From the NCBI GenBank assembly GCA_002423495.1, contig DIWN01000058.1, positions 4,080 through 68,079 of the forward strand: a stretch of 64,000 bases of DNA, written 5' to 3'. This DNA comes from Anaerolineaceae bacterium UBA6105. GTDB lineage: Bacteria; Chloroflexota; Anaerolineae; Anaerolineales; Anaerolineaceae. Positions within the stretch are counted from its first letter, which is position 1, and each line of letters opens with the position of its first letter. Both the position numbers and the translations under genes were made by a program. The notes beneath the pieces are model-generated. The model was given only the letters and a program-made list of their open reading frames with translations. It ran no database searches and was not told the origin of the DNA. Shown here in pieces: positions 29,026 to 53,231 of the stretch.

Positions 29026-29028
29026 CTG

Positions 29029-30520: not shown

Positions 30521-30892
30521 ATGAAATTTTTGGATGTAATTGCTATTTGTGAAGGCACGCTCGTCACACCAGATGTAGACCAAGTTCCAGAAATCAAAGG
30601 CGGCTTTGCTGGCGATCTGATGAGTGATGTGCTTGCTTCGATCCAGTCTGAAGCGGTGCTTATAACTGGTCTCTGCAATCCCCAGGTTGTTCGCACAGCT
30701 TTAATTGCAGATGTCCGCTTGATCATTTTTGCGCGGGGAAAGAAACCTGGCAATGATATCCTCCATCTTGCAAAAGAGGAAAACCTACCTGTTGCTACTT
30801 CGCACCTGGGTCTCTACGAGATTTCAGGCCGGCTCTCCCAAGCCGGATTACCCAGCTGTGAAGTGGAATTGAATCTCTTTCCAAACGACTAG
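30521..30892 (+). CDS. DRTGG domain protein
   Basis: AGDLMSDVL...VLITGL...VVRTA pattern typical of DRTGG domains. Confidence 0.7.
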   Translation: MKFLDVIAICEGTLVTPDVDQVPEIKGGFAGDLMSDVLASIQSEAVLITGLCNPQVVRTALIADVRLIIFARGKKPGNDILHLAKEENLPVATSHLGLYEISGRLSQAGLPSCEVELNLFPND

Positions 30893-30898
30893 GCTTTA

Positions 30899-31849
30899 AT
30901 GAGCGACCAGGCTACTGTCTCCGATAAAAATGCTGGCATGATCACCAGGGTTGAGGAACTTGGCTATGAACTAAAAATCGGCCAGGTGATGACCACAAAG
31001 GTTGTCACACTCTCCCCTGAGACAACCATTCTTGAAGCGCTTGATGTGTTCAAACAACATCGCATCTCGGGCACTCCAGTTACGGTTGAAGGCGAACTTG
31101 TTGGCATCATTTCCACCGAAGACCTGATCCGTGCTCTAAGGGACGGGAGAATCGATCGCAGCGTCTCAACCTACATGACTAAAGATTTGATCACTGTCAA
31201 AGCCACAGACTACATTGTGGAAGCCCTGAAGGTATTTGCAAAAACAAAAGTCGGACGCTTGCCAGTTGTGAATGAGAACAACAAATTGATTGGGCTGATT
31301 ACCAAAGGAGATATTACCAACGGCTTGTTAACCGCCCTTCAACGGGACTATCAGGCTGAGGAAATTATCCGTTATCGCGCTTCACACCTGTTTGAGGACA
31401 TCGAATCCGACCGCACCAGCCTCATCCTGCGGTATCGCATCATCAAAGATGACTTTGTCCACGGTGGTGCAGCTTCCAACAACATCAAAAGAGCCCTCCT
31501 GCGCCTGGGCGCGAACCGACAGATCGCCAGAAAATGTGGAATTGCTGTATATGAATCTGAGATGAACCTGATCATCCACACCAACAACGGCGGCTTCCTT
31601 AGGGTCGAAATAGAGCCACACAAAATTACGATAGAAGCTTATGATGATGGACCCGGCATTGATGACGTCGAAAAAGCCTTAACCCCTGGATATTCCACCG
31701 CCACCGAAGAGATCCGCGACAAAGGCTTTGGGGCAGGTATGGGTTTGGTCAACATTCGCTCCTGTGTCGATGAAATGAGCCTCAAGTCCTCAAAGGAAAG
31801 CGGCACAAATCTATTTATGACCATGTATTTGGACAAACCCGGAAATTGA
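30899..31849 (+). CDS. CBS-pair protein fused to HATPase_c (RsbW/SpoIIAB-like serine kinase fold)
   Basis: Two CBS units (VMTTKVVTLSPE.., YMTKDLITVKAT..), then DDGPGI and GFGAGMGLVNI G-boxes. Confidence 0.75.
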   Translation: MSDQATVSDKNAGMITRVEELGYELKIGQVMTTKVVTLSPETTILEALDVFKQHRISGTPVTVEGELVGIISTEDLIRALRDGRIDRSVSTYMTKDLITVKATDYIVEALKVFAKTKVGRLPVVNENNKLIGLITKGDITNGLLTALQRDYQAEEIIRYRASHLFEDIESDRTSLILRYRIIKDDFVHGGAASNNIKRALLRLGANRQIARKCGIAVYESEMNLIIHTNNGGFLRVEIEPHKITIEAYDDGPGIDDVEKALTPGYSTATEEIRDKGFGAGMGLVNIRSCVDEMSLKSSKESGTNLFMTMYLDKPGN

Positions 31850-31862
31850 GGTCCGACGATCC

Positions 31863-32222
31863 ATGTGCTCACTCCAGACTATTTTAGACACCATCGAACT
31901 TCAAGTTCTGACAGAACCACTCGAGTACTCGCAAATTGAAATCACATCCGGCTACACTTCGGACCTTCTCAGTTGCGTAATGACTGGCGCCCTGGCTGAT
32001 GGTATTTGGGTCACTTTGATTGCCAACATCAACATTGTGGCGGTTGCTTCCTTGTTGGAAATTCCCGCCATCATCATCACAGAAAATGCTCAACCGGATG
32101 CAGCCGCCATTGCCCGCGCAAACCAGGAAGGCATCGTGCTGCTCTCCACGCCCGTTGGAAGTTACCAGATCGTTGGAAGACTCTGGGAACTGGGGATTAA
32201 AGATACTGATCCAAACCAATGA
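31863..32222 (+). CDS. DRTGG domain protein (second copy)
   Basis: TSDLLSCVM...IWVTLIANINIVAVASLLEIPAIIITE pattern. Confidence 0.7.
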   Translation: MCSLQTILDTIELQVLTEPLEYSQIEITSGYTSDLLSCVMTGALADGIWVTLIANINIVAVASLLEIPAIIITENAQPDAAAIARANQEGIVLLSTPVGSYQIVGRLWELGIKDTDPNQ

Positions 32223-32932
32223 AAAGCCTCAAGGCAGAACTCCATATCCACACCGTGCTCTCTCCCTGTGCCACGTTGGAAATGCTGCCACCTTTTATTG
32301 TCGAACGCGCCCTCGAAACCCACACACACCTGATTGCGATAACTGATCATAACGCCAGTGCCAACGTACCCGCCGTTATCAAAGCTGCAGAAGGCAGCGA
32401 GCTGACCGTCCTGCCCGGGATAGAGCTTACCACTGCAGAGGAAATTCACGTTGTATGCCTTTTTGATACGTACTCACAACTGGCAGAGTTCCAAAAAATT
32501 GTCGATCAAAATTTGCCGAATATTCCCAATAATCCTGACTTCTTTGGCATGCAGTTGATCGTGGACTCAGAGGGGAATTATGTCGATACAGAAGAACGCC
32601 TTCTCAGCAACGCCACCTTTCTCTCGATCAACGAAGCTCAACGGCATGTGCAGCGCCTGGGAGGTATCTTCATCCCTGCCCACGTTAATCGGGAGGAGAA
32701 TGGTCTCTTGCCCCGCCTCGGCGGCATTCCTCCTGAACTGAATTTATCGGTCCTCGAGATTTACGGCATTTCCAAAGCTGAAGCTATCCAACGCTATCCC
32801 TGCCTTAAAGATTACCATCTCATCCCCAGTTCCGATGCCCATGATCTTGACGCAATCTCGGGCGTCCTGCGGTTGGAATTGGAGGAAATTTCCGTTGCGG
32901 CATTACTTCAGGCCTTTCAAACCCAATATTGA
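32219..32932 (+). CDS. PHP-domain phosphoesterase
   Basis: ELHIHTVLSPCA and ITDHN metal-binding motifs. ATGA-type overlap upstream. Confidence 0.75.
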   Translation: MKSLKAELHIHTVLSPCATLEMLPPFIVERALETHTHLIAITDHNASANVPAVIKAAEGSELTVLPGIELTTAEEIHVVCLFDTYSQLAEFQKIVDQNLPNIPNNPDFFGMQLIVDSEGNYVDTEERLLSNATFLSINEAQRHVQRLGGIFIPAHVNREENGLLPRLGGIPPELNLSVLEIYGISKAEAIQRYPCLKDYHLIPSSDAHDLDAISGVLRLELEEISVAALLQAFQTQY

Positions 32933-33187: not shown

Positions 33188-33679
33188 ATGGAAGAGAACC
33201 CAACCCTAACCAAGCCCACAACTGATGACCTCAAGCAGGAAATTTCATTAATCCTGCAAGGAATAAACAAGGACCGGGAGAATCTGATCCCAATTCTCCA
33301 CAAAATTACCCTACGATTTGGTTACATCTCCAGCCAGGCATTATACGAAGTTAGCGAACAAACAGCCATTCCACTTTCTGAAGTGTTCTCTGTCGCCACC
33401 TTCTACCGCATGCTCCCCACCGAGGAGCGCGGCAGGCATGTGATTCTCTTCTGCGAGAGCCTGCCTTGCCACGTTGTTGGAGGGCGGGAAGTATTGCAAG
33501 CCCTAAAGGCAGAACTCCAGCTTGAACCAGGCCAAACCAACCCGGATAAGAAGTGGACACTTCTGACCACCAGCTGCCTGGGTGTGTGCAATTTTGGTCC
33601 GGTCATCTCAATCGATGGCAACATCCACGGGAATCTAACACCGGAATCCCTTCCAGAAATCCTGAAAAAATACGAGTAG
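33188..33679 (+). CDS. NuoE/HoxE/HydC-like [2Fe-2S] subunit, copy 1
   Basis: CESLPCHV...TSCLGVCNFGPV thioredoxin-like 2Fe-2S motif. Confidence 0.85.
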   Translation: MEENPTLTKPTTDDLKQEISLILQGINKDRENLIPILHKITLRFGYISSQALYEVSEQTAIPLSEVFSVATFYRMLPTEERGRHVILFCESLPCHVVGGREVLQALKAELQLEPGQTNPDKKWTLLTTSCLGVCNFGPVISIDGNIHGNLTPESLPEILKKYE

Positions 33680-33687: not shown

Positions 33688-35304
33688 ATGAAAACAGTAC
33701 GTTCAATGGTTTTAGTATCGAACGATATCAAAAGCAAAGCCAACGCCTCGCAAGAAGTCATTGATGCTTTCAACCTGGCAATCAAAAAGCTGGATCTCGC
33801 CGATGAAGTGGCAGTTTCCACCATTCCTGAGGTTGGTACGGTCCGAAGCTTACCTTTGGTGGTGATTTTCCCGGAAGCCACGGTGTATGCTCCAGTGAAA
33901 CCCGAGGATGTTCCTCACCTGGTTGAAGAACATCTCTATAAAGGCCGTGAAGTTCCGGATCTGAAGGTGAAAGACGCTGACACTTTACGAAAAGTTGCCT
34001 GGCTCACCCAGCGGAAAGGAACCCTGCCTGCTGAGAATAAAATCGTTCTAAAAAATGTTGGCCTAATAGATCCTGAAAGCATTGATGAGTTCTTTGCGTA
34101 CGAAGGTGGACAGGCTTTTGCCACAGCCCTCCAGATGACCCCAGAGCTAGTTGTTGAGGTTATCAAAGCCTCTGGTTTGCGTGGTCGCGGAGGGGCTGGC
34201 TTCCCTGCCGGCATCAAATGGGATTCTGTTCGCAGAACGCCCGGCAAAAAGAAGTATGTGATTTGTAACGCCGATGAAAGCGAACCGGGCACCTTCAAGG
34301 ACCGCATCATCATGGAAGGCGATCCATTCACCATCATAGAGGCAATGTTGATTGCAGGCTATGCAGTCGGCGCAGATGAAGGGTACATCTATATCCGCGG
34401 AGAGTACCAACTTGCGCTCGAACGTGTGCAAAAAGCTATCCAACAAGCCCGTGAATACGGCGTGCTGGGAAAAGACATTTTTGGCTCAGGTTTTGACTTC
34501 GATCTTCACATTCATGCTGGTGCAGGTGCTTACATCTGTGGCGAAGAAACTGCCTTGCTCGAGTCTATCGAAGGCGGCCGCGGTGAGCCGCGTGTCAAGC
34601 CCCCATATCCCACCACTTCTGGTCTTTGGGCTATGCCAACACTGATCAACAACGTAGAAACTTTTGCCAATATCCCACCGATCATCCTCAACGGCGCAGA
34701 TTGGTTTAAATCCTTTGGCACACCTTCAAGCCCTGGCACCAAGGTCTACACCATCTTGGGCAATGTCAACAATACAGGATTGATTGAAGTTCCGATGGGG
34801 ATCACTCTACGTGAAGTCATCAACATTTACGGCAAAGGAACCAAGGGCGGGCAGTTTAAATTTGCCCAGACTGGTGGTTCCAGTGGATCGATCATTCCTG
34901 CTGCGCTGCAAGATACCCCAATGGACTTTGACTCTTTCAGAAAAGTTGGCGTAGCTTTGGGCTCTGGCGCGCTATTGATCTGCAATGATTCCAACTGCAT
35001 TGTTGACTCAGTACGTGTTCTAACCCGCTTCTTCCAGGAGGAATGCTGCGGAAAATGCGTTCCATGTCGCGTTGGCACGGATCAAGCCTGGAAGGTCCTG
35101 ACCGACATCTCAGAAGGGCGCGGAAAAATTGAAGATATCGCCCAATTGGAATGGCTCTGCAAAGGCATGGAAGAGTTTTCCAACTGCGGCTTGGGTCAGA
35201 CAGCAGGAACACCGATCAAAAATATGCTCGACCACTTCCGTGCGGAAGTTGAAGCCCATATCAAACTTGGTGTCTGCCCCACTGGCGTTTGCCCCATGAG
35301 CTGA
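33688..35304 (+). CDS. NuoF/HoxF-like FMN/NAD(H) subunit, copy 1, without C-terminal ferredoxin domain
   Basis: GRGGAGFPAGIKW, CNADESEPGTFKDR, ECCGKCVPCRVGT, NCGLGQTA. Start at ATG 33688 (AGGAG upstream) rather than track start 33553. Confidence 0.85.
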   Translation: MKTVRSMVLVSNDIKSKANASQEVIDAFNLAIKKLDLADEVAVSTIPEVGTVRSLPLVVIFPEATVYAPVKPEDVPHLVEEHLYKGREVPDLKVKDADTLRKVAWLTQRKGTLPAENKIVLKNVGLIDPESIDEFFAYEGGQAFATALQMTPELVVEVIKASGLRGRGGAGFPAGIKWDSVRRTPGKKKYVICNADESEPGTFKDRIIMEGDPFTIIEAMLIAGYAVGADEGYIYIRGEYQLALERVQKAIQQAREYGVLGKDIFGSGFDFDLHIHAGAGAYICGEETALLESIEGGRGEPRVKPPYPTTSGLWAMPTLINNVETFANIPPIILNGADWFKSFGTPSSPGTKVYTILGNVNNTGLIEVPMGITLREVINIYGKGTKGGQFKFAQTGGSSGSIIPAALQDTPMDFDSFRKVGVALGSGALLICNDSNCIVDSVRVLTRFFQEECCGKCVPCRVGTDQAWKVLTDISEGRGKIEDIAQLEWLCKGMEEFSNCGLGQTAGTPIKNMLDHFRAEVEAHIKLGVCPTGVCPMS

Positions 35305-35479: not shown

Positions 35480-35992
35480 ATGACATCAACACCCATGCAG
35501 CTGGATCCCCTCGAGAATCCCAAAATGAGAGAAGTTATCGATAATACCATCTCAGAATTCGGAGATCAAAATGGCGCTTTGATGGTAGTTCTCAACCACC
35601 TCCAGGAGAGAGTGGGCTTTATCACCAAACCAATGCAAGCTTACGTTGCCGAAAAACTGGGTGTTCCAGTGAGCAAGGTCCATGGTGTGGTATCTTTTTA
35701 TTCTTTCTTCACCACAGAACCCCGCGGTAAACATGTTGTAAAATTCTGCATAGGTACTGCCTGCTACGTTGGCGGAGCTTCCCAATTGATTGATAAAGCC
35801 AAGCAAGTGCTGGCCATCGAACCCGGTCAAACTACTCCAGACGGGCTGATCACCCTCGAAGTCTGCCGTTGTGTGGGAGCTTGCAGCCAGGCACCTGTTG
35901 TGGTGGTGGACGAAGCCAATCATGGGCGAGTGAAGCCTTCTCAATTCGGTAAGGTTTTGACGGATATCCAAAAAAGCGAGGCGGCAGTTTGA
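35480..35992 (+). CDS. NuoE/HoxE/HydC-like [2Fe-2S] subunit, copy 2
   Basis: FCIGTACYV...EVCRCVGACSQAPV motif. Confidence 0.85.
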   Translation: MTSTPMQLDPLENPKMREVIDNTISEFGDQNGALMVVLNHLQERVGFITKPMQAYVAEKLGVPVSKVHGVVSFYSFFTTEPRGKHVVKFCIGTACYVGGASQLIDKAKQVLAIEPGQTTPDGLITLEVCRCVGACSQAPVVVVDEANHGRVKPSQFGKVLTDIQKSEAAV

Positions 35993-36567
35993 GAGAACTC
36001 TCGCTTCACCTTCTTGACATTGCCGAAAACAGCATCTCTGCTGGGGCAACAAGAATCGTGATTTCCGTGCATGAAGATCTGGTGGCTGACGAGCTGTGGC
36101 TTGCGGTCACCGACAACGGCAAGGGTATGTCCCCTGAGATGGTCGCCAACGTACTGGACCCCTTTTTCACCACCCGAACTACTCGTAAAGTCGGCCTGGG
36201 CATTCCTCTGCTTAAACAAGCAGCTGAAGCATGTAATGGATTCCTAACCGTGGAATCAGAGTTGGGTAAAGGTACAAAACTCACTACTAAGTTCCAACAC
36301 AGCCACATCGACCGCATGCCTTTGGGAAACCTCGAAGACACGATCATCACCCTGCTTTTAGGCACCCCTTCGGTAAACTGGGTTTTCGATTATCAATATA
36401 ATGACCAAAGCTTTGAATTTGACGATACTGAATTTAAGGAAGCTCTGGGCGATCTGCCCTTGAGTGATTTCCGTGTAATTGAATTTTTATCCAACACCAT
36501 CATCCATGGTATTACAAACGCAAAAAACATCACCACCGAAAAAGGAGTCGTGTATGCCAACCATTAA
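35989..36567 (+). CDS. stand-alone HATPase_c (histidine-kinase-like ATPase) protein embedded in the hydrogenase operon
   Basis: N-box HLLDIAENSISAG, G1 DNGKGM, G2 GLGIPL. No HisKA domain. TTG start overlaps the upstream stop. Confidence 0.75.
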   Translation: MRELSLHLLDIAENSISAGATRIVISVHEDLVADELWLAVTDNGKGMSPEMVANVLDPFFTTRTTRKVGLGIPLLKQAAEACNGFLTVESELGKGTKLTTKFQHSHIDRMPLGNLEDTIITLLLGTPSVNWVFDYQYNDQSFEFDDTEFKEALGDLPLSDFRVIEFLSNTIIHGITNAKNITTEKGVVYANH

Positions 36568-36922
36568 ATCTCTCGATGACCTCAAAAGACTGCGTGAGGA
36601 AGCCCAGAAAGTCAAGGAACTACGGGACCAGACAGGCAAAACTCAAATTGTAGTCGGAATGGGAACTATCGGTATCGCCGCTGGTGCCCGTGAAACTTTG
36701 AAGGCAATCCTCAACTATATCGAGGATCATCACCTTCCCGATATCATTTTGCGCCAGACCGGCAACATTGGTCTCGGAGGTCAGGACCCGGTTGTGCAAG
36801 TGATCCTTCCTGGTGCTGAAACTGTAACTTATGGCAAAGTTACTCCTGCTATCGCTGCCAGGATTATGGATGAACATGTCGTCAAGGGAAACATCGTCCA
36901 GGAATTCCGAATAGAAGCCTGA
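36554..36922 (+). CDS. thioredoxin-like [2Fe-2S]-ferredoxin-fold protein (HydD-like position) with no cysteines
   Basis: IVVGMGTIGIAAGA...RQTGNIGLGGQDPVV aligns by eye to the VCxGTCGxAAGA...TGCxGxCxxEP pattern. The 122-aa product has zero Cys. AAGGAG lies before ATG 36554. Confidence 0.65.
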   Translation: MPTIKSLDDLKRLREEAQKVKELRDQTGKTQIVVGMGTIGIAAGARETLKAILNYIEDHHLPDIILRQTGNIGLGGQDPVVQVILPGAETVTYGKVTPAIAARIMDEHVVKGNIVQEFRIEA

Positions 36923-36958
36923 GTTTGGGCTTAATCAATTAGGAAGGTAAGTATAGAT

Positions 36959-38743
36959 ATGGCGTACTATCGTTCAACCGTGCTTGTCTCTATGGATCCT
37001 GCTTGTATTGACAAAGGGGCGTTAGCTGTCAAGGAACAACTGATCAACGAGTTGGCAAACCTTAACCTGTCGGAAGAAGTCCAGGTTATGGATATCCCCA
37101 GAATTGGAGACCCCGAAACTGAAGGTCCTGATATTCTGGTCTACCCTGAAGGTAGCCACTACATCCAATTGACCACAGCAACCGTTGGTCCCATTGTGAT
37201 TGAACACTTCATCAAAGGTCGCGAGCTTCAACAATATAAAGCTCAAATGCGCGATGTCACCGATGAGGAGCTCCGTGAACCCAAAGACAAGGAAATTCGT
37301 GTCATCCTTGAAAACATTGGAAAGATTGATCCTCGAAATATTGAGGATTACATTGCGGTCGATGGCTACCAAGCTCTGGCAAAGGTCCTTGGTGAGATGA
37401 GTCCGGAAGAAGTTATCCAGACTATTCTCGATTCCAAATTGCGTGGTCGCGGTGGCGCTGGTTTTCCAACCGGTTTAAAGTGGAAATTTGCCCGGCAATC
37501 ACCGGATACTCCAAAATACATGGTTTGCAACGCTGACGAAGGCGACCCCGGCGCGTTCATGAACCGTAAGGTTCTGGAAGGCGATCCTCACTCAGTACTC
37601 GAAGGCATGACTATCGGCGCGTACGCCGTAGGCGCCAACCAGGGCTATGTTTACTGCCGTGCTGAATATCCCATCGCCGTCAGCACGCTCAACACAGCCA
37701 TCGAACAAGCCAGGGAATACGGCCTGCTCGGCAAAGATATCCTCGGATCCGGTTTTGATTTTGATATTGAAGTCCGCATGGGTGCAGGCGCGTTTGTTTG
37801 CGGTGAAGAAACCGCATTGCTGGCTTCCATTGAAGGCGCTCGCGGTGAACCTCGCGTTCGCCCTCCCTTCCCTGCCTCAAAAGGCCTGTGGGGCAAACCC
37901 ACCAATATCAACAATGTAGAAACTTATGCTAACGTTCCAAAGATCATCCATCGCGGTCTTGAGTGGTACACCAGCATGGGTTCCGAGAAAAGCAAGGGCA
38001 CAAAAACATTTGCCCTCGCCGGCGATCTCGTCCACACTGGTCTGATTGAAGTACCTTTCGGCACGACGCTGCGCGAGATTATCAACGACATCGGCGGCGG
38101 CATCAAAGATGGAAAAGCCTTCAAGGCCGTCCAAACTGGTGGTCCAATGGGTGGATGTTTGCCCGAAGAGTTCCTTGATCTTCCTGTGGATTACGAAACG
38201 CTCGGTGCTGCTGGCTCCATCATGGGCTCGGGCGGGATGATCGTGATGGACGAAGAAACTTGCATGGTGGACATTGCCCGTTTCTTCATGGAATTCACTC
38301 AGGATGAATCCTGCGGCAAGTGCGTTCCCTGCCGTGTTGGCACGCGCCGTCTACTCGAGATCCTTGAGCGCATTTGCGCTGGCAAGGGCGTCCCCGAAGA
38401 CATCCCTCTGCTCAGGCAGCTTTGCGACGAGATCATCCAGGATAGCCTTTGCGGTCTGGGGCAAGGCGCGCCAAATCCAGTCATATCCACGATGAAACAC
38501 TTCATGGATGAGTACGAGGCGCACATCTACGAGAAGCGCTGCCCCGCAAAGGTCTGCCGAAGCCTGATCACCTTCGAAATTCTGGCAGATAATTGCACCG
38601 GCTGCACCGTTTGCGCGCGCAACTGCCCGGTCAACGCAATTAGTGGTGAGAGAAAACAAACCCACGTAATTGATACAGAGCTTTGTATACGCTGCGGTAT
38701 CTGCAAGCAAGTTTGTAACTTTGATGCGGTTGTCATCAATTAA
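36959..38743 (+). CDS. NuoF/HoxF/HydB-like FMN/NAD(H) subunit, copy 2, with C-terminal 2x[4Fe-4S] ferredoxin domain
   Basis: GRGGAGFPTGLKW, CNADEGDPGAFMNR, ESCGKCVPCRVGT, LCGLGQGAP, then CTGCTVCARNCP and CIRCGICKQVCNF. Confidence 0.9.
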   Translation: MAYYRSTVLVSMDPACIDKGALAVKEQLINELANLNLSEEVQVMDIPRIGDPETEGPDILVYPEGSHYIQLTTATVGPIVIEHFIKGRELQQYKAQMRDVTDEELREPKDKEIRVILENIGKIDPRNIEDYIAVDGYQALAKVLGEMSPEEVIQTILDSKLRGRGGAGFPTGLKWKFARQSPDTPKYMVCNADEGDPGAFMNRKVLEGDPHSVLEGMTIGAYAVGANQGYVYCRAEYPIAVSTLNTAIEQAREYGLLGKDILGSGFDFDIEVRMGAGAFVCGEETALLASIEGARGEPRVRPPFPASKGLWGKPTNINNVETYANVPKIIHRGLEWYTSMGSEKSKGTKTFALAGDLVHTGLIEVPFGTTLREIINDIGGGIKDGKAFKAVQTGGPMGGCLPEEFLDLPVDYETLGAAGSIMGSGGMIVMDEETCMVDIARFFMEFTQDESCGKCVPCRVGTRRLLEILERICAGKGVPEDIPLLRQLCDEIIQDSLCGLGQGAPNPVISTMKHFMDEYEAHIYEKRCPAKVCRSLITFEILADNCTGCTVCARNCPVNAISGERKQTHVIDTELCIRCGICKQVCNFDAVVIN

Positions 38744-38763
38744 GAGAAGCGAGGAGAATATTT

Positions 38764-40692
38764 ATGATTCAACTAACAGTAAACGGTCAAGCCGTTGAAG
38801 TCGAAGCTGGTTCCACGATTCTGGATGCAGTCCGCAAAGCTGGTTTTAACGTTCCTACCCTGTGTTATCACCCCAAGCTGGTTTCCTATGGGTCCTGCCG
38901 CCTCTGCCTGGTGGAAGTCGAAGGCGCCCGCACCCTCCAGCCATCTTGTGTTGTGCCGGCAGCAAATGGCATGATTGTTCATACTGACACAGAAAAGACC
39001 AAATCCTCTCGGAAATTCATTCTTTCAATGATTTTCAGCGAACGCAATCACTTCTGCATGTATTGCCAGGATACCGACGGAGATTGCGACCTCCAGCAAG
39101 CTGCCTATGATGAGAATATGACTCACTGGCCGATCACTCCAGCCTACAAATCCTTCGTAGTGGATGCTTCTCATCCGGATTTCTTCCTGGACAACAACCG
39201 ATGTATCCTTTGCCGCCGTTGCGTGCGCGCGTGCACAGAACTAGTTGGCAACGCTACCCTTGGTTTTGAAGAACGCGGCTCCGGCAGCATCCTGATTGCC
39301 GACAACAACGTGCCCCTTGGCGAAAGCACCTGCATCTCCTGCGGCAACTGTGTGCAATTCTGCCCGACTGGTGCCCTCATTGATCGGCGGAGTGCCTACC
39401 AGGGTCGTGAAACAGACCTGACCCATACCAATTCTGTTTGCCTGGACTGCAGCCTCGGTTGTGAGCGTGTGATCAAGACCCGCGATAACCGCCTGGTGCG
39501 CATCGATGGGAATGAAGAGATTGGTTTCAATGACAGTTTGCTATGCTACGACGGTCGCTACAAGCCGCTGAAAGAAGATCGTGAACGCGTCACCAGCCCC
39601 ATGGTGCGACGGAACGGTCAGCTGGAACCAATCAGCTGGGATGAAGCGCTCACCGCTATCTCCGTGCAGCTGAAAGCCCATGCCAGTAGCGAAATCAGTG
39701 CCCACATTTCTCCGAGGCAGCCTGTTGAAGCTTTGAGCGCTTTCCATGAGTTTTTTACGGAGCACTTTAAAGCCGGGCAGGTCACGCTTCTTGGGCATGA
39801 TCAAACCGCCCTCACCAGTGCGAAACTTGCTGCGGAAATCGGCGCCTTTGAATCCGATCTTTCTATTTTGAAGGACTGCGACACAGTAATCGTCCTCGGC
39901 ACTGATATGGTCAAGGACCACCAGGTTGCCGGATTCTTCCTCAAGCGCCAGGCAATGCAAGACCTCAATATTTTCATTGCCAACAGCACCCGCACCCATA
40001 TCGGCGACTGGTCTTCCAACAAATTGGAATACGTTGGCTCCGATTACGCGGCAGTAGTGGACCTGCTGAAGAGTTTCGCAATGGTTGAGACCACTGATCT
40101 GACCCCACAGCTTGAAAACCTCGGGCTCAAACCCGCGCGTGCCGAACAAGTGCTTGGAAAGCTAAATCAAAGCCAAAAACCAGTCTTTGTGGTTGGTAAG
40201 GAATTTGCCAAAGCAGAGAATCTGCCTGCTTTTCGCAAGCTTGTGGAACTTGCGCGTGAAATCGGCGCGAAAGTTGTTTCCCTCAAGGGCAAAGCCAACA
40301 ATTTTGCCGGAGCTCTGCTTGGTTACGAACTGGATGCCCAGCCGAAATCCACACCTGTCTTCTACCTGGCGCTCGGCGATGGTCATGCGTGTGATCACAC
40401 CCGTGATGCCCTCGCTGGCAGTGAATTCAAGATCGTGCAGTCAAGCTACGTCTCGGAATTCACCGAAATGGGAGATATCGTTCTGCCCTGCACAATCTGG
40501 GCTGAGCAGATCGGACATTACCTGACTTCAGAAGGCAAGCTTGGGCTCAATCAGCAAGCCATACAAGCTACCGATGGCAATCTACCTGTCTTGGATGTCA
40601 TGAAAAGCCTCGCTAATAAATCGGGACTAACTCTCTCCGAAACATGGCGCACCGCTGTTGAAGAAAAAGTTGCTGCAATCGTTTTGTCCTGA
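38764..40692 (+). CDS. NuoG/HydA-like Fe-S subunit (HoxU position) with molybdopterin-oxidoreductase-like C-terminal extension
   Basis: N-terminal 2Fe-2S (CYHPKL..CRLCLVEV..C), HFCMYCQDTDGDC, CILCRRCVRAC, CISCGNCVQFCP, CLDCSLGC. It is 642 aa in total. Confidence 0.85.
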   Translation: MIQLTVNGQAVEVEAGSTILDAVRKAGFNVPTLCYHPKLVSYGSCRLCLVEVEGARTLQPSCVVPAANGMIVHTDTEKTKSSRKFILSMIFSERNHFCMYCQDTDGDCDLQQAAYDENMTHWPITPAYKSFVVDASHPDFFLDNNRCILCRRCVRACTELVGNATLGFEERGSGSILIADNNVPLGESTCISCGNCVQFCPTGALIDRRSAYQGRETDLTHTNSVCLDCSLGCERVIKTRDNRLVRIDGNEEIGFNDSLLCYDGRYKPLKEDRERVTSPMVRRNGQLEPISWDEALTAISVQLKAHASSEISAHISPRQPVEALSAFHEFFTEHFKAGQVTLLGHDQTALTSAKLAAEIGAFESDLSILKDCDTVIVLGTDMVKDHQVAGFFLKRQAMQDLNIFIANSTRTHIGDWSSNKLEYVGSDYAAVVDLLKSFAMVETTDLTPQLENLGLKPARAEQVLGKLNQSQKPVFVVGKEFAKAENLPAFRKLVELAREIGAKVVSLKGKANNFAGALLGYELDAQPKSTPVFYLALGDGHACDHTRDALAGSEFKIVQSSYVSEFTEMGDIVLPCTIWAEQIGHYLTSEGKLGLNQQAIQATDGNLPVLDVMKSLANKSGLTLSETWRTAVEEKVAAIVLS

Positions 40693-40729
40693 CCGATTAA
40701 ACGAATAAATGCAGGTTGAAAGGAAACGT

Positions 40730-41272
40730 ATGACAAAACCAAAAGTTGCATCAGATTGGCTCGCTGGCTGTGCCGGTTGCCACATGTCTTTCCTTGATAT
40801 GGACGAACGTATCATTGAACTGCTCAAACTGGTCGATTTACGCTCTACGCCGATCACCGATCTCAAAGAACCGGATGAGGAAGGTGTGGATGTCGGCATT
40901 CTTGAAGGCGGTATTACAAACACCTACAATGAAGAAGTCGCGATCAAGATGCGCGAACGCTGCAAGATACTGGTTGCACTTGGTGACTGCGCTGTGTTTG
41001 GTGGTGTACCTGCCATGCGCAATTTCCCCGGTGCCGAGGAAGCCCTCAAACGCGCTTACATCGAAACCGAAAGCACCGATGAAAGCGGCATGATCCCCAA
41101 CGATCCGGAACTTTCCACACCTGTGCATGTTCGACCGGTCAGCGATGTCGTCAAAGTTGATGTATTCCTGCCCGGCTGTGCGCCAAGCGCAGACGCGATT
41201 TTTTATGTTTTATCTGAATTAGCCCAGGGCAGAATGCCTAAAGTCGACGGCGAATTCAATAACTGGCATTAG
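40730..41272 (+). CDS. [NiFe]-hydrogenase small subunit (HoxY/HydS-like, NuoB fold)
   Basis: WLAGCAGCHMSFLD, ALGDCAVFGG, LPGCAP. AGGAAA lies before ATG 40730. Confidence 0.85.
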   Translation: MTKPKVASDWLAGCAGCHMSFLDMDERIIELLKLVDLRSTPITDLKEPDEEGVDVGILEGGITNTYNEEVAIKMRERCKILVALGDCAVFGGVPAMRNFPGAEEALKRAYIETESTDESGMIPNDPELSTPVHVRPVSDVVKVDVFLPGCAPSADAIFYVLSELAQGRMPKVDGEFNNWH

Positions 41273-41281
41273 GAGAATTGA

Positions 41282-42706
41282 ATGGGTACACAAAAAATTA
41301 CTATCGAACCAGTCACCCGCATCGAAGGTCACGCCAAAGTGACCGTCCACATGAATGAAGATGGCTCAGTTGAGCACGCTTACTTCCATGTAAACGAATT
41401 CCGGGGCTTCGAAAAATTCTGTGAAGGTCGCCTCGTCACCGAGATGCAGCAGATCACTCCCCGTATCTGCGGCATTTGCCCTGTCAGTCACCACCTTGCT
41501 GCAGCTAAAGCCGGTGATGTCGTCCTGGGCTGCCCGCCACCCCGCCCTGCAAGTTTACTTCGCGAACTCATGCACATGGGTCAGATCATTCAGAGTCACG
41601 GTATGCACTTCTTTGAGCTCGCCGGACCTGATCTGATTCTTGGTTTCGACGCCGATCCCGCCATCCGCAATGTGGTTGGGCTGATCCAGGCTGACCCTGA
41701 CCTTACCGTCAAGGCAGTTCGCCTGCGCAAGTTCGGTCAAGCGATTATTTCTGAGTTGGGTGAACGCTCGATCCACCCTACCTTCGCAATTCCTGGCGGT
41801 GTAAACCGCACTTTGACCGCTGAAGGTCGCGACCGCATCCTGGCTGATCTCGATGCCCAAATTGAGACCACCAAAATTGGTATCAAGATCGTCAAAGACT
41901 GGGCAGAAGCCAACCAAGAAACAGTTGATAAGTTTGCTGTCTTCCCCACCGGTTATCTCGGTCTGATCACCCCTCGCAAAGGCCTCGAGCTTTATGATGG
42001 CAATATCCGCCTTAAGAGCCGCACTGGTGAAGAGTTGGAGATCTTCAGTGCTCAAAATTATCTCGATTACATAGCCGAGCACGTTGAGCCCTGGTCTTAT
42101 CTGAAATTCCCCTATTACAAGAAACTTGGCTACCCGGGTGGTGTCTATCGCGTGGGTCCGCTCGGTCGGCTCAACATGATTGAACAGATCGAAACCCCGA
42201 TGGCGAATGAAGAAATGAAGATCTTCAAAGCCATCAACAATGGCGCGCCGGTTGAGAACACGCTTTATTATCACTACGCCCGCATGATCGAAGCTCTATT
42301 TGCAGCTGAACGGGTACGTGTGCTGCTTGACGATCCGGATATTCTGAGCAATGACATCCTGAACACACGCCAGAATCCAGTTGGGCACGGCGTTGGCGTC
42401 ATCGAAGCCCCACGCGGCACCCTGATCCACGACTACACTGCCAACGAAAACGGCCAGCTTACCAAGGTGAACCTGATCGTCTCAACCGGGCATAACAACT
42501 ATGCCATGAGCAAGGCTGTTGATATGGTTGCCAAGGAATACGTCCACGGTCCTGATGTTAAAGAAGGCATGCTCAACCGGGTCGAACACGCCATTCGCGC
42601 CCACGACCCCTGCCTCTCCTGCTCCACCCATGCAGTTGGGCAAATGCCCCTGGAGATCACGATCTTCGACCACCAGGGCAACCTGACCCAGACCCTGCGG
42701 CGGTAG
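41282..42706 (+). CDS. [NiFe]-hydrogenase large subunit (HoxH/HydL-like)
   Basis: RIEGH, L1 [11 protein letters not shown]2 [10 protein letters not shown], followed by a 23-aa C-terminal extension. Confidence 0.9.
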
Positions 42707-42726
42707 ATCGAACCAAACCAAGTTAT

Positions 42727-42758
42727 ACCTCCCCGCTGAACGGGGAGGTGTTTTTTTT
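42727..42758 (+). terminator. strong intrinsic terminator between the large subunit and the maturation genes
   Basis: ACCTCCCCG-CTGAA-CGGGGAGGT then G and T8. Confidence 0.75.
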
Positions 42759-42770: not shown

Positions 42771-43262
42771 ATGCGACAAAAAACGCTCATAATTGCCTAC
42801 GGAAACCGCGACCGTGAAGATGATGGCGCTGGTTGGCACATCCTCGATAAACTTGCGCAAAGGCTTGGGCTTGAAACACCGCAATTTCCGGGAGACAAGA
42901 TTACAACCCCCGATGGCGAGCTGACCTTGCTCTACCTTTTCCAGCTTTTACCTGAAATGGCGGAGGATATTGCTGATTTTGATGAGCTTGTTTTTATCGA
43001 CGCTCACAATTCCCCCAGTTTACCAAATCTGATCTTTGAGGAAGTATCCCCTGACCGAACACATTCCGCTTTCACTCACCATATGAACCCGGGTGAGCTG
43101 CTTGCCATTGCGCAAGTACTTGAAAAAAGATTACCTGAAGCCTGGATGCTGAGTGTACGTGGTTTTTCATTCCGTTTTGAACCATCCCTTTCCTCCAAGA
43201 TGACTGAGTTGGTCGACCAGGCCTTCTCACACCTCCAATCGCATCTTTTCCGGGCGGTATAA
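42771..43262 (+). CDS. hydrogenase maturation endopeptidase (HoxW/HycI family)
   Basis: LIIAYGNRDREDDGAGWH motif. Confidence 0.8.
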   Translation: MRQKTLIIAYGNRDREDDGAGWHILDKLAQRLGLETPQFPGDKITTPDGELTLLYLFQLLPEMAEDIADFDELVFIDAHNSPSLPNLIFEEVSPDRTHSAFTHHMNPGELLAIAQVLEKRLPEAWMLSVRGFSFRFEPSLSSKMTELVDQAFSHLQSHLFRAV

Positions 43263-43269: not shown

Positions 43270-43623
43270 ATGCACGAATTGGCAATTACCGAAAGCATCC
43301 TGTCTATTGCCGATCAGGCTGCAAAGGAAAACAACGGCACAAAAGTCACGGACATTTACCTGATACTTGGACAACTATCCTCGATCGTCGATGATTCAGT
43401 CCAATTTTATTGGGACCATATCAGCCTCGGAACCGTTTGTGAAGGCGCTGTACTTCACTTTGAACGCCGCCCTGCTATGTTGCGCTGTAAAAGCTGTAAT
43501 CACCAGTATCCATTGGGTGAAATCCTTCAGACTTGCCCAAACTGCCAGAGTCCTGACGTCTTCATTGAAGCTGGCGAAGAAATGCTGGTGCACCATATCG
43601 ACATACTACGAGAGGAACCTTAA
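43270..43623 (+). CDS. hypA: hydrogenase nickel incorporation protein HypA
   Basis: MHELAITESIL N-terminus; CKSC...CPNC zinc site. Confidence 0.9.
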   Translation: MHELAITESILSIADQAAKENNGTKVTDIYLILGQLSSIVDDSVQFYWDHISLGTVCEGAVLHFERRPAMLRCKSCNHQYPLGEILQTCPNCQSPDVFIEAGEEMLVHHIDILREEP

Positions 43624-44282
43624 TGTCACAACGTGTTGAAATTGTAAAAAGGATCATGGATTCCAACGATCGCCTGGCACAAAATAACCAGGCTATCCTG
43701 GACCAAAATCACATCTTTGGAATTAACCTTATGGCTTCTCCTGGAGCTGGAAAAACCAGTTTCATTTTGGAGACCATTAAGCGATTGCCTGCTGAAATTA
43801 AGCTTGGTGTGATCGAAGGTGACACCGCCCCGGTCACGATTGACTCGGATAAAATTGCAGCCGCCGGCATCCCAGCAGTTCAGATCAACACAGGCGGTGA
43901 GTGTCATCTCGATGCAAATATGATCGAAATGGCATTGGATGAGCTCCCCTTAGAAGACCTGAATCTAATCATGGTTGAAAATGTTGGCAACCTCATTTGC
44001 CCCGCCGCTTTCCAGCTCGGCACGCACGCCAACATCCTGATCGCTTCCATTCCCGAAGGGGATGACAAGCCCTACAAGTACCCCAACATCTACCGCGGGC
44101 TGGACGTGTTGATCCTCAACAAGATCGATCTAACCCCCTATATCGACTTTCGCATGGACTACTTCCAGCAGGGTGTCGAGATGCTCAATCCAGGTCTGAA
44201 AACTTTTGCTCTGAGCGCCAAAACGGGTGAAGGTTTTGACGCCTGGATCACGTGGCTAACCGATAAAGTCACCACAAAGTAA
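43623..44282 (+). CDS. hypB: hydrogenase nickel-insertion GTPase HypB
   Basis: GSPGAGKTS-type P-loop (ASPGAGKTS), ENVGNLICPA, NKIDL. Confidence 0.9.
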   Translation: MSQRVEIVKRIMDSNDRLAQNNQAILDQNHIFGINLMASPGAGKTSFILETIKRLPAEIKLGVIEGDTAPVTIDSDKIAAAGIPAVQINTGGECHLDANMIEMALDELPLEDLNLIMVENVGNLICPAAFQLGTHANILIASIPEGDDKPYKYPNIYRGLDVLILNKIDLTPYIDFRMDYFQQGVEMLNPGLKTFALSAKTGEGFDAWITWLTDKVTTK

Positions 44283-44288: not shown

Positions 44289-46586
44289 ATGCCAGTCATC
44301 AACAAGCGGATCCACATCACCGGCATCGTGCAGGGTGTGGGCTTCAGACCAACAGTTTACAACCTGGCTAAAAGGTATTCTCTTGCCGGCTGGGTTCTCA
44401 ACAACGCGCATGGCGTGGAGATTGAGCTGCATGGGTCTGAGGTAAATGTGCAGGCTTTCATCAAGGACCTGCAGCAAAACCCGCCGCCGCTTGCGGTGAT
44501 TGACAGCTTCACTGTTGACGACTCTGAAAACCAGGTTTTTGTGGGCTTTCAAATCCGTCACAGTGAGGATGATCCAGCCGACTTTCTGCCCGTTTCACCC
44601 GACTTGAACATTTGCCCGGATTGCCACCGCGAGCTTTTTGACCCATCCAACCGCCGTTATCGCTATCCCTTCATCAACTGCACCAATTGTGGCCCCCGTT
44701 TCTCGATTGTTACTGGCATCCCATACGACCGCCCCAATACCAGCATGGCGGGTTTCGCGCTCTGCCCGGATTGCTCGAAAGAATACCAGGATCCAAGCAA
44801 CCGGCGCTTCCATGCCCAGCCGATTGCCTGCCCGGTTTGCGGTCCGCAGGTCTGGTACGAAGAGCATGGTCAGAAGCTGGCGGAACGTCAAGATGCTATC
44901 CAGGCAGCCCGACAAGCCCTTGCTGAGGGCAAAATTCTGGCTGTAAAAGGCTTGGGTGGCTTTCACCTGGCTTGCGATGCCCAAAACCCGCAAACCCTTG
45001 AAAAATTGCGTTTGCGCAAACGCCGCAGTGGCAAACCCTTTGCTTTGATGGCTTTTGACCTTGAAAAGATAAAGGAGTTTGCCAGCGTCAACCCGGAGGA
45101 GGAAAAACTGCTCACCTCACCCATGGCGCCTGCCGTTTTGCTCGAAACGACTGAAGCCGGTAAAGTATTGGCACGCCTGGTCGCGCCTGATCAAAACCGA
45201 CTGGGCTTCATGCTGCCCTACACGCCACTACATCTTCTGCTGCTGGAACCTGCTGAAGGTTTTCTAAAAGTGCTCGTGATGACCAGCGGGAATCTGAGCG
45301 AAGAACCCATCGCATATTCCAACGCTGAGGCCCAAAGACGCCTTTCAGATCTGGCAGATGGCTTTCTTCTGCATGACCGCCCGATCCACACCCGCATCGA
45401 TGACTCGGTAGTCTCAGTCATTGAAGGCCTTCCTCACATTCAGCGGCGAGCCCGCGGTTATGCGCCTTTACCGCTGCAAATCACCACCAGCACGATTCCA
45501 ACATTGGCTTGCGGCACGGAACTCAAGAACACCTTTTGCCTTGTGCGCGACCGCTACGCTTTCGTCAGCCACCATATTGGAGACCTCGAAAACCAGGAAA
45601 CCCTGACCGCGTTTGAAGATGCCGTCAGGCATTACGAGAATATTTTCCGCATCAAACCGCAGCTCCTGGCTGCCGACATGCACCCCAATTACCTCGCCAG
45701 CCGCTACGCCCATCAACGCTCAGCAGATGAAAACCTGCCCTTGGTTGAGGTGCAGCATCACCATGCCCACATCGTTTCCTGCATGGCAGACAACGGTTTG
45801 AATCAGAAGGAAGCAGTGATTGGCCTGGCATTCGACGGCACGGGTTATGGTACTGATGGCGCTATCTGGGGTGGAGAAGTTCTTATATCGAATTGGGAAA
45901 AATTCGAACGTCCATATCACCTCGAATATGTTTCATTACCAGGCGGTGACGCGGCAGTGCGAAAGCCCGCCCGCATGGCCCTCAGCCTGATCCTCCATGC
46001 CGGCATTAATCCTGAGAGTTACGCTTTCCCCTTCCACCAGTCTCTGGATCAGGATGAGCGCGCAGCAGTCGCAAACCAGGTTCGCACCGGTTTTAATACG
46101 CCAAAAACGAGCAGTCTTGGGCGCCTTTTTGATGGCGTGGCGGCTTTGATCGGTCTCCACCAACAGATCAGTTACGAAGCCCAAAACGCCATCGCGCTTG
46201 AAACTATTGCCGACCCCGAAGAGCAATCCCGCTACGATTTCCCAATCGAAAACGGTCAAATCCTGGTTTCACCTGCGATCCGGACCATTGTTCGGGATAT
46301 CGAACAAAAAACCGCTCCAGCGGTCATTTCTGCCCGCTTTCACAACGGTCTGGCGGATTGTGCCGTGCATGTTTCTGAACAGATCAGAACTCAGACCGGT
46401 TTGCGGCAAGTGGTATTATCCGGTGGAGTGTGGCAAAATAAGATCCTGATCAAGCGAACCATCACCGCGCTCAACGCGTCAGGCTTTGAGATCTTCTGGC
46501 CTCACAAGCTGCCCACCAATGACGGTGGAGTATCATTAGGTCAGGCGCTGGTGGCGCTGGCAGTCAGCGGAAATTTGAAGGAGTAA
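44289..46586 (+). CDS. hypF: carbamoyltransferase HypF
   Basis: Acylphosphatase N-terminus, two CxxC-x18-CxxC zinc fingers, YrdC-like and Kae1-like domains. Confidence 0.9.
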   Translation: MPVINKRIHITGIVQGVGFRPTVYNLAKRYSLAGWVLNNAHGVEIELHGSEVNVQAFIKDLQQNPPPLAVIDSFTVDDSENQVFVGFQIRHSEDDPADFLPVSPDLNICPDCHRELFDPSNRRYRYPFINCTNCGPRFSIVTGIPYDRPNTSMAGFALCPDCSKEYQDPSNRRFHAQPIACPVCGPQVWYEEHGQKLAERQDAIQAARQALAEGKILAVKGLGGFHLACDAQNPQTLEKLRLRKRRSGKPFALMAFDLEKIKEFASVNPEEEKLLTSPMAPAVLLETTEAGKVLARLVAPDQNRLGFMLPYTPLHLLLLEPAEGFLKVLVMTSGNLSEEPIAYSNAEAQRRLSDLADGFLLHDRPIHTRIDDSVVSVIEGLPHIQRRARGYAPLPLQITTSTIPTLACGTELKNTFCLVRDRYAFVSHHIGDLENQETLTAFEDAVRHYENIFRIKPQLLAADMHPNYLASRYAHQRSADENLPLVEVQHHHAHIVSCMADNGLNQKEAVIGLAFDGTGYGTDGAIWGGEVLISNWEKFERPYHLEYVSLPGGDAAVRKPARMALSLILHAGINPESYAFPFHQSLDQDERAAVANQVRTGFNTPKTSSLGRLFDGVAALIGLHQQISYEAQNAIALETIADPEEQSRYDFPIENGQILVSPAIRTIVRDIEQKTAPAVISARFHNGLADCAVHVSEQIRTQTGLRQVVLSGGVWQNKILIKRTITALNASGFEIFWPHKLPTNDGGVSLGQALVALAVSGNLKE

Positions 46587-46588
46587 AT

Positions 46589-46849
46589 ATGTGTCTGGGT
46601 ATTCCTGGTAAAGTCACAAAAATTTATGAACAGGATAGCACTTCTATGGCGTCCGTCGATTTTGACGGGGTGGAACAGGCGATTTGCATTGCCACCACGC
46701 CTGAAGTCGTGCTCGGGCAATACGTTTTGGTGCACGCTGGCTTCGCTTTGAACGTTCTGAGCGACACAGAAGCTGAGGAGACCCTCAAGATACTGCGCGA
46801 TTTGCAGGAATTCAATAACCGCCTGACTGAAGAAGACCAAACCAAATGA
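46589..46849 (+). CDS. hypC: HypC/HupF chaperone
   Basis: [10 protein letters not shown]-terminus. Confidence 0.9.
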
Positions 46850-47940
46850 CCGAATCACCCACAAACCTGCGGGACGCCTCGCTGACCAAAGCCATCATGG
46901 CTGAAATTCGCCGCATCACGACCCAAGCCTGGAACATTATGGAAATTTGCGGAGGGCAGACGCATGCCATCATGCAATACGGGCTCGACCAACTGCTGCC
47001 CCCTGAAATCACCCTGATCCACGGACCAGGCTGTCCGGTTTGCGTTACCTCACTCCAGGCAATCGAACAAGGTCTTCAGATTGCCTGCCAAAATGAAGTA
47101 ATTTTCACCACTTTTGGCGACATGCTACGCGTGCCTGGCAACCAGGCGGATCTTTTCAGCGCCCGTTCCCAGGGAGCAGACGTACGCGTGGTTTACTCGC
47201 CCTTGGATTCCCTCAAAATTGCCAACGCAAACCCCGACAAACAGGTGGTTTTCTTCGCGATTGGTTTTGAAACCACCGCTCCCACCATCGCCAGCACGAT
47301 TCTAACCGCCAGTAAGTCTGGAATCGATAATTTTTCGATCCTCCCGGCAAATGTCTTGGTGCCGCCGGCGATGCACACTATCCTTTCAAACCCGGCCAAC
47401 CGTGTGCAGGGCTTCCTGGCAGCGGGTCACGTCTGCGCGGTGATGGGTTACCATGAATACCTGCCAATCGCTGAGCAGTACCAAATCCCGATCGTTGTAA
47501 CTGGCTTTGAGCCGGTTGATTTGGCTGCGGGCATCTTGATGACCGTCCAACAGCTCGAATCTGGGCAGCACCAGGTGGCCAACGCCTATCCGCGTTTTGT
47601 TACCCGTGAAGGCAACCAGGTTGCCCAACAAATAATCTCACAGGTTTTTGAACCGGTAGACCGCCAATGGCGCGGCATCGGCACCATCCCGCTTTCAGGG
47701 CTTGGTCTGCGACCGGAATACGCCAACTTCAACGCACTCTCCCGCTTTGAGCTGTCCGAGACACCCCTGAACGAATCGCCGCTCTGCATCGCTGGCAAAG
47801 TGTTAAGTGGGGTTGCCAAACCGCTTGATTGCCCGGCTTTTGGCAAAGATTGCACCCCCACCCACCCGCTTGGCGCACCCATGGTTTCTTCCGAGGGGGC
47901 CTGCGCCGCTTACTACCGCTATCACAGGACGCGCGAATGA
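46846..47940 (+). CDS. hypD: HypD Fe-S maturation protein
   Basis: [22 protein letters not shown] motifs. ATGA overlaps on both sides. Confidence 0.9.
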
Positions 47941-53227: not shown

Positions 53228-53231
53228 TTGC

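Follow-up and report, generated by a model that had tools for sequence, protein, structure and literature searches.

A probable bifurcating [NiFe] hydrogenase of the HydABCSL type, with a second NuoE/NuoF pair, in Anaerolineaceae bacterium UBA6105

We analyzed a putative [NiFe] hydrogenase operon on the + strand of a 64-kb window (the whole stretch of DNA that was studied) from Anaerolineaceae bacterium UBA6105 (Chloroflexota). Searches with Pfam and NCBIfam models identified seven closely packed + strand open reading frames (ORFs) at 35480-42706. The first-pass annotation of this DNA had given the gene order as NuoE-like, histidine-kinase-like ATPase, ferredoxin-fold protein, NuoF-like with a ferredoxin domain and NuoG-like, together with the small and large subunits of a [NiFe] hydrogenase, and all of these genes were recovered as ORFs in their places. 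The NuoE-like gene (35480-35992; PF01257, 153 bits) encodes HydC (BfuC), which carries the [2Fe-2S] cluster C1. The HisK-like ATPase is an accessory protein (35989-36567; HATPase_c, 62 bits). HydD (36554-36922) is a small thioredoxin-like ferredoxin-fold protein of 122 amino acids (aa) with a weak match to an NCBIfam 2Fe-2S ferredoxin model (30 bits), and its start is an ATG internal to the ORF 36479-36922.

HydB (BfuB; 36959-38743), the flavin mononucleotide (FMN) and NAD(H) subunit, is NuoF-like and has a C-terminal Fer4 dicluster domain. HydA (BfuA; 38764-40692, 642 aa) is a NuoG-like Fe-S subunit with Fer2_4, NADH-G_4Fe-4S_3, Fer4 and Molybdopterin domains. The catalytic part consists of HydS (40709-41272), a short [NiFe] small subunit (PF01058, 103 bits), and HydL (41282-42706), the [NiFe] large subunit (PF00374). 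The start of HydS is possibly M8 at 40730; public gene calls give 180 aa, and the length thus ranges from 180 to 187 aa. The two ten-residue motifs earlier ascribed to the large subunit are present at HydL 61-70 and 442-451, and its ligand cysteines are C63, C66, C444 and C447.

The relatives of each subunit were ranked by search against solved structures in the PDB. The top match of HydL was HydL of Acetomicrobium mobile (7T2R_D, 572.8 bits), compared with 393-397 bits for the Mvh group 3c chains and 387 bits for the Hox group 3d chain. Over 407 ungapped columns, HydL was 55% identical to A. mobile HydL; with three large subunits of group 3c and with HoxH of H. thermoluteolus it shared 42-44% identity. 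In a neighbor-joining (NJ) tree with a small reference set of five PDB references only, the Anaerolineae HydL proteins and A. mobile HydL fell together in 187 of 200 bootstraps. Within this reference set, HydL is closest to A. mobile HydL by bit score, identity and tree, and does not fall in a clade of non-bifurcating Hox enzymes. The top match of HydS was 7T2R_E (184.1 bits, 52% identity), and its four ligand cysteines (21, 24, 94 and 157) correspond to a single proximal [4Fe-4S] cluster. HydA matched 7T2R_A best (289.6 bits), and HydB matched 7T2R_B (781.8 bits) and then A. woodii HydB (780.4 bits). The matches of HydC were, in order, T. kivui HydC (8A6T_C, 1.5e-38), A. woodii HydC and A. 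mobile HydC (7T2R_C, 7e-34).

In the description by Feng et al. (2022, PMC8880783), the A. mobile operon contains hydD, hydP and hisK in addition to the five structural genes. They found HydB and HydC in the purified enzyme, and HisK was absent from the holoenzyme. The order found here, hydC-hisK-hydD-hydB-hydA-hydS-hydL-hydP, is that of the A. mobile operon (PDB 7T2R/7T30, PMC8880783) and of the A. hydrogeniformans locus (L081), so that the structural subunits, the accessory genes and their arrangement are all shared. The hisK-like gene and hydP have the positions that they have in A. mobile, and hisK also that in A. hydrogeniformans. With 7T2R as the top match for HydL, HydS, HydA and HydB and with identical gene order, the likeness to A. 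mobile NiFe-HydABCSL that had been proposed is supported. Judged from its sequence, the locus probably (with a probability of about 0.75) encodes an Anaerolineaceae ortholog of the heteropentameric bifurcating [NiFe] hydrogenase NiFe-HydABCSL (NiFe-Bfu, Type 3 Bfu). Enzymes of this kind have been described before; the one here is a variant that spans its lineage, in a phylum to which NiFe-HydABCSL had not been ascribed.

Generic annotations name the large subunit "NAD-reducing hydrogenase large subunit", and the locus could on that account be a classical non-bifurcating group 3d NAD-reducing hydrogenase with only superficial likeness to HydABCSL. For HydC, the highest-scoring NCBIfam model is that of HoxE, and the N-terminal region of HydA matches HoxU, both under the cut-off. 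However, no NCBIfam Hox model reached its cut-off, the subunit-level comparisons all favour 7T2R, and HydB has a C-terminal 2x[4Fe-4S] domain, a Cys/His site and AFM/Phe motifs that are lacking in C. necator HoxF. A group 3d identity is thus very improbable. The Hox group 3d enzymes (H. thermoluteolus 5XF9; Synechocystis) do resemble this locus in their small subunit, which is short and has one cluster, in their NuoEFG-like diaphorase, which is cytoplasmic, and in their link to NAD(H). They differ from it in that HydL is only 42.5% identical to HoxH (5XF9_D), HydA has 642 aa with a molybdopterin-like domain whereas HoxU has ~240 aa, and a Bfu-type HydB and HydC are additionally present.

The first-pass annotation had set a bifurcating HydABCSL enzyme against a non-bifurcating Hox enzyme. 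The HydABCSL side of this contrast stands. The contrast itself is less sharp than assumed, because a 2026 preprint (10.64898/2026.06.25.734504) reports that Synechocystis HoxEFUYH is itself bifurcating. Thus, the label "Hox-like" no longer implies "non-bifurcating".

The [FeFe] HydABC enzymes (T. maritima; A. woodii, 7Q4V; T. kivui, 8A6T) have HydB and HydC modules nearly as similar to those of the window as the A. mobile modules are. The hydC-hisK-hydD-hydB-hydA layout and the upstream DRTGG and PHP genes are also common to both. The difference lies in catalysis, which in this locus belongs to the separate [NiFe] subunits HydS and HydL. We ruled out HydA as an [FeFe] hydrogenase, as it has neither an Fe_hyd_lg_C domain nor the CCP, MPC and CxxGCxxG H-cluster motifs. 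HydA as a formate dehydrogenase was ruled out by its domains; of the molybdopterin fold it has the PF00384 portion alone, and the same holds for NuoG and for HydA of A. mobile.

The positions of the cluster ligands were transferred from A. mobile through HMMER alignments and checked in 59-71 orthologs from related loci. The first-pass annotation had made its proposal depend on Bfu-type cluster ligands in the NuoF- and NuoG-like subunits; the Bfu ligands of HydB and HydC are kept, with the exception of cluster B5. HydB has the B1 ligands C452, C455, C458 and C498. It also has the Cys/His "B2" site (C435, C473, H522, C528 and C533; 59 of 60 orthologs), which later work assigned to Zn (Li et al. 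2025, PMC11829005). The C-terminal 2x[4Fe-4S] motifs of B3 and B4, CTGCTVCARNC at 546 and CIRCGICKQVC at 576, are likewise kept in 59 of 60 orthologs. The C1 ligands of HydC (C90, C95, C131 and C135) are conserved in all 61 orthologs, and the A1-A5 ligands of HydA, A3 included, in 70-71 of 71.

Schut et al. (Suppl. Fig. 10, PMC9304861) and the preprint 10.64898/2026.06.25.734504 give an AFM motif, a single Phe and GGPSG as signatures of the bifurcating flavin pocket. The corresponding motifs of HydB are CNADEGDPGAFMNR (with AFM as GAFMNR), GAGAFVCGE and GGPMG, and AFM and Phe are present in 59 of 59 orthologs. Taken together, the AFM/Phe motifs, B1, the Cys/His site and the B3/B4 motifs are kept in 59-60 of the 60 Anaerolineae HydB sequences. 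A. mobile shares all of these with the window, as it does C1 and A1-A5.

Some observations weigh against the assignment to NiFe-HydABCSL. The third pocket signature of HydB is GGPMG instead of GGPSG, a change from Ser to Met. Between the C-terminal domain of HydA and its A. mobile counterpart there is only weak similarity (25 bits); this domain is divergent, and the protein has 50 aa fewer than in A. mobile. In addition, B5 belonged to the first mechanism proposed for NiFe-Bfu (PMC9304861), and only one of its four cysteines is found here. Without bearing on the assignment, the host differs too, being a member of Anaerolineaceae (Chloroflexota) here and of Synergistota in the case of A. mobile.

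At the B5 positions 11, 16, 48 and 52, HydB has S, C, R and P, so three of the four cysteines are gone. The full set (C11, C16, C48 and C52) is present in HydB of A. mobile, A. hydrogeniformans, Aminivibrio and A. woodii. Among 60 HydB sequences from Anaerolineae, the pattern is SCRP in 33 and CCRC in 17, and no operon copy has the four-Cys site. HydD, which aligns with the N-terminal domain of HydB, is cysteine-free in the window and has no cysteine in 30 of 56 Anaerolineae orthologs, compared with three in Synergistota HydD. We looked in the related loci for a correlation between the loss of B5 cysteines and the presence or position of the second NuoE/NuoF pair described below, and found none.

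Li et al. (2025, PMC11829005) found Zn at B5 of NfnB in C. saccharolyticus NfnABC, and concluded that B5 is dispensable and that [B1-FMN-C1] is the minimal bifurcating site. Because B5 was dispensable in their work, its loss is no argument against bifurcation, nor against membership in the Bfu family. The Anaerolineae HydB would add another natural example that lacks B5, and the cysteine-poor site provides an independent natural test of the minimal [B1-FMN-C1] site.

A mechanism can be proposed from the structure and biochemistry of A. mobile. Read from the sequence, the locus shows five-subunit homology, the gene order, all ligand sets on the electron path, the pocket motifs and the ferredoxin-domain branch of HydB. 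In a fermenter, the enzyme would run in the confurcating direction, using NADH and reduced ferredoxin to make H2. NADH would deliver a hydride to the FMN of HydB, and reduced ferredoxin would dock on the C-terminal 2x[4Fe-4S] domain of HydB. The ferredoxin electrons would then reach the [B1-FMN-C1] site through the mobile [2Fe-2S] cluster C1 of HydC. The merged electrons would pass along B1-A1-A2-A3 (HydA) to S1 (HydS) and to the [NiFe] site of HydL, where protons would be reduced to H2. By analogy with A. mobile, we infer that these fermenters couple NADH and ferredoxin to H2.

Anaerolineae are abundant primary fermenters in anaerobic digesters and sediments, and annotations usually give Hox as the name of their main cytoplasmic [NiFe] hydrogenase. 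Therefore, the electron donors of this enzyme may be misassigned, as may the H2 thresholds, energy yields and syntrophy models built on them.

Here, we explored the distribution of the operon with the best 80 of 387 HydL-related stretches in species-representative genomes. These 80 related loci had 74-97% identity and all came from Chloroflexota/Anaerolineae, with Anaerolinea, Leptolinea, Levilinea, Pelolinea, Brevefilum and Mesolinea among the genera. The exact HydL sequence also occurs on public contigs, one of them from a hydrocarbon metagenome, and the named close homologs belong to Anaerolineaceae. In the literature library that was searched, no paper connected Anaerolineae with HydABCSL, and one study of metagenome-assembled genomes (MAGs) uses the name HoxEFUHY for the Anaerolineae enzyme.

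Schut et al. (2022, PMC9304861) listed six NiFe-Bfu members, from Synergistetes and Halorhabdus. Outside the Anaerolineae set, we observed a HydC-HydB-HydA-HydS-HydL-HydP operon in Fundidesulfovibrio butyratiphilus (Desulfobacterota; L082, 5024-11980 and 13912-21437), the HydL of which is 70% identical to A. mobile HydL. The operon adjoins CoA-transferase, acyl-CoA dehydrogenase, electron-transfer flavoprotein and beta-oxidation genes. Because of this Fundidesulfovibrio operon, NiFe-Bfu reaches beyond the phyla listed in 2022.

A second NuoE/NuoF pair (NuoE2/NuoF2) lies directly upstream of the genes at 35480-42706 and is part of the same conserved gene cluster; it had been missed in the first-pass annotation. 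NuoE2 (33188-33679, + strand) is a NuoE-like [2Fe-2S] subunit (PF01257, 143 bits), and NuoF2 (33688-35304, + strand, 538 aa) is a NuoF-like FMN/NADH subunit with Complex1_51K, SLBB and NADH_4Fe-4S domains. The nuoF2 gene starts at 33688, as the listed ORF begins too far 5'. NuoE2 is 35% identical to HydC and NuoF2 is 46% identical to HydB. The cluster cysteines of NuoE2 (C89, C94, C130 and C134) are kept in 30 of 30 orthologs, and the B1 cysteines of NuoF2 in 54 of 55 loci.

The pair occurs in 57 of the 80 related loci. In 47 of them it stands between hydB and hydA, so that the genes run nuoE2-nuoF2-hydA-hydS-hydL; in the 10 loci of the window's lineage, it is found upstream of hydC. The gaps from hit to hit are short, with a median of 52 nt from nuoF2 to hydA. 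NuoF2 is about as well conserved across the class as HydB (mean pairwise identity, 0.69 vs 0.73). The Synergistota and Fundidesulfovibrio operons have a single NuoE/NuoF pair, and the second pair is therefore specific to the Anaerolineae version. The window also differs from A. mobile in that hypABFCDE are adjacent.

The pocket motifs of NuoF2 are CNADESEPGTFKDR, GAGAYICGE and GGSSG, which are present in 53 of 54 loci. Schut et al. (PMC9304861) showed this type of pattern for the non-bifurcating Nqo1, C. necator HoxF and S. wolfei Hyd1B. NuoF2 shares the motifs ESEPGTFKDR and GAGAYICGE with S. wolfei Hyd1B, C. necator HoxF and T. thermophilus Nqo1, and groups in an NJ tree with representatives of the TFK/Y type. 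The AFM, Phe and GGPSG motifs, which the preprint 10.64898/2026.06.25.734504 gives for cyanobacterial HoxF, are absent from NuoF2. In contrast to Hyd1B, HoxF and Nqo1, NuoF2 retains a cysteine-free thioredoxin-like N-terminal domain and a Bfu-type C-[S/T/A/C]-H-C-C (Cys3His) site. The protein ends 3-15 residues beyond this site, and therefore has no ferredoxin-binding domain.

The top PDB matches of NuoF2 are Bfu HydB chains (557 bits vs 395 bits for Nqo1). In an NJ tree of 150 representatives from a library of 1.84 billion proteins, the NuoF2 clade lies within a 29-member clade that is entirely TFK/Y. NuoF2-like families outside Anaerolineae were sought among the 1.84 billion representatives, of which the nearest shares only 49% identity with NuoF2 and is an ordinary Bfu HydB. 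There are also a few proteins of the TFK type that carry a Cys3His tail (for example P0165, P0179, P0226, P0246 and P0263).

Both the conservation of the pair and its place between genes for structural subunits speak for a NuoE2/NuoF2 that works with the same HydA-HydS-HydL core. In the least secure part of our interpretation, NuoE2/NuoF2 is a second NADH-linked flavoprotein module functionally tied to this core. It could provide an alternative entry for NADH electrons without bifurcation, or form an additional module in a larger complex. Several observations count against such a tie. At least six loci with complete upstream coverage lack the pair, and its position differs between lineages. 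In the window, it is separated from hydC by 175 nt, a gap that contains promoter-like and weak terminator-like matches. Finally, HydA has only one known docking site for NuoF (A1 beside B1), which makes it hard to picture the attachment of two flavoprotein modules.

These observations bear on a different explanation, in which NuoE2/NuoF2 is unrelated to the hydrogenase and is a hitch-hiking NADH-dehydrogenase module for a partner encoded at another site, for example a complex I of 11 subunits or a formate dehydrogenase. The lineage-dependent position of the pair, its absence from some loci and the promoter-like match before hydC in the window would all fit this. So would the model scores, with NuoF2 over the cut-off of the NCBIfam NuoF model PRK13596 (427 vs 389 bits) and NuoE2 nearly at that of NuoE (140.1 vs 141). 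However, in 47 loci the pair is enclosed, with short gaps, by hydB and hydA, which both encode structural subunits of a single enzyme. The ORFs that were scanned in the window yielded no nuo membrane-arm genes and no catalytic subunit of a formate dehydrogenase. The pair also retains the Bfu-type Cys3His site, which is absent from complex-I NuoF. We consider an unrelated module unlikely.

The order nuoE2-nuoF2-hydA-hydS-hydL in the 47 loci mirrors that of hoxEFUYH, and NuoF2, like HoxF, has no C-terminal ferredoxin domain and carries the TFK/Y and GGSSG pocket of the non-bifurcating NuoF/HoxF type. It may be suggested that the working enzyme is a Hox-like NuoE2-NuoF2-HydA-HydS-HydL complex, in which H2 is coupled to NAD(H) only, or as in cyanobacterial Hox, and that HydB/HydC form an alternative or separate module. 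The public annotation of the large subunit as "NAD-reducing hydrogenase" and the naming of HoxEFUHY in Anaerolineae MAG studies agree with this. However, HydB and HydC are present in every locus with enough upstream sequence, also where NuoE2/NuoF2 is lost, and both are part of the purified A. mobile enzyme (PMC8880783). HydA is of the long NiFe-HydA type rather than the short HoxU type, and HydL groups with A. mobile HydL, apart from HoxH. This explanation is quite improbable.

With NiFe-HydABCSL as the preferred identity of the locus, the two flavoprotein modules may be joined in one picture, which we put forward tentatively and regard as rather doubtful. The hydrogenase would have seven subunits or two forms, with one HydA-HydS-HydL core served by both HydBC and NuoE2F2 and with no metal centre at B5. 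The Bfu-type HydBC would confurcate NADH and reduced ferredoxin, and the complex-I/HoxF-like NuoE2F2 would feed in NADH electrons without ferredoxin. If this were true, H2 production could be switched between a confurcating and an NADH-only mode with the H2 partial pressure in syntrophic consortia. The conserved second pair is a lead on how bifurcating and non-bifurcating routes to H2 could be combined.

The arrangement of the operon varies among the related loci. L055 has tandem HydB-like genes (2469-4130 and 5557-7335), both with CCRC at B5, in place of HydB and NuoE2/NuoF2, and this arrangement may be another operon variant. In L058, L059, L063, L074 and L080, a second hydC-hydB-hydA-like set lies at ~12300-15800, downstream of hydP and before the hyp genes. 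The HydA part of this set is 26-29% identical to the window HydA over 67% of its length, and the set could represent an [FeFe] HydABC; it has no counterpart in the window.

The 3' flank of the operon begins with an intrinsic-terminator-like hairpin and T-run directly 3' of hydL (42725-42751, + strand), the highest-ranking match of the terminator scan. It has an 11-bp stem with 7 GC pairs, followed by TTTTTTTT. The full downstream hyp set that had been claimed is present on the + strand, preceded by the maturation endopeptidase HydP (42771-43262; TIGR00072, 51.7 bits, cut-off 47.45). It comprises hypA (43270-43623; Pfam HypA), hypB (43623-44282; cobW/HypB), hypF (44289-46586; HypF domains), hypC (46589-46849; HupF_HypC), hypD (46846-47940; HypD, 501 bits) and hypE (47937-49007; AIRS/HypE). 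Two SufB/SufD genes for Fe-S assembly (51935-54704, - strand) lie downstream of the hyp cluster.

Upstream of NuoE2 there is a putative regulatory set on the + strand. Its first gene encodes a DRTGG-domain protein (30521-30892; PF07085, 28.6 bits), which is upstream in related loci too. The second encodes a putative regulator with two CBS domains and a HATPase domain (30899-31849; PF00571, 114.9 bits; PF02518/PF13581), found upstream in most Anaerolineae loci. Another DRTGG-domain protein (31863-32222; PF07085 and Hpr_kinase_N, both weak) and a PHP-domain protein (32219-32932; PF02811, 30.8 bits) follow, and they are kept in 48 and 49 loci, respectively. A PHP gene is also present at the equivalent position in Acetomicrobium (L081). 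The upstream set of A. hydrogeniformans (L081, 793-4005) contains a sensory-type [FeFe]-hydrogenase-like gene (Fe_hyd_lg_C; 1600-2919) beside a small HATPase protein. In the set at 30521-32932, the CBS-HATPase protein occupies the position of that gene, and there is no hydrogenase-like gene. Further upstream of the hydrogenase region, tRNA-His(GTG) (29028-29100) adjoins the gene for histidyl-tRNA synthetase (29174-30436).

In another part of the window, a redox gene cluster was found at 9527-19315 (+ strand). It contains a tungsten-type aldehyde:ferredoxin oxidoreductase (9527-11413), a 4Fe-4S dicluster protein, an HdrA/MvhD-like gene, further polyferredoxins and an NAD-binding DHODB-type Fe-S protein (17467-18324). 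Together, these genes could form a further multi-subunit system for electron transfer or bifurcation. The segments 11933-12568 and 12584-14470 form one reading frame, interrupted by a single TGA at 12566-12568 in the context TFPTMDCSI*ILAPKM. HdrA proteins presumably have a conserved Cys or selenocysteine after "DCS", at the place of this TGA. The joined gene (11933-14470) would encode an HdrA-like flavin adenine dinucleotide (FAD) protein fused to polyferredoxin and an MvhD/FlpD domain, with a probable selenocysteine. Near the start of the window, a 922-aa ORF (6460-9228) with no Pfam match follows a 1781-aa protein (1118-6463) that consists almost entirely of TPR repeats.

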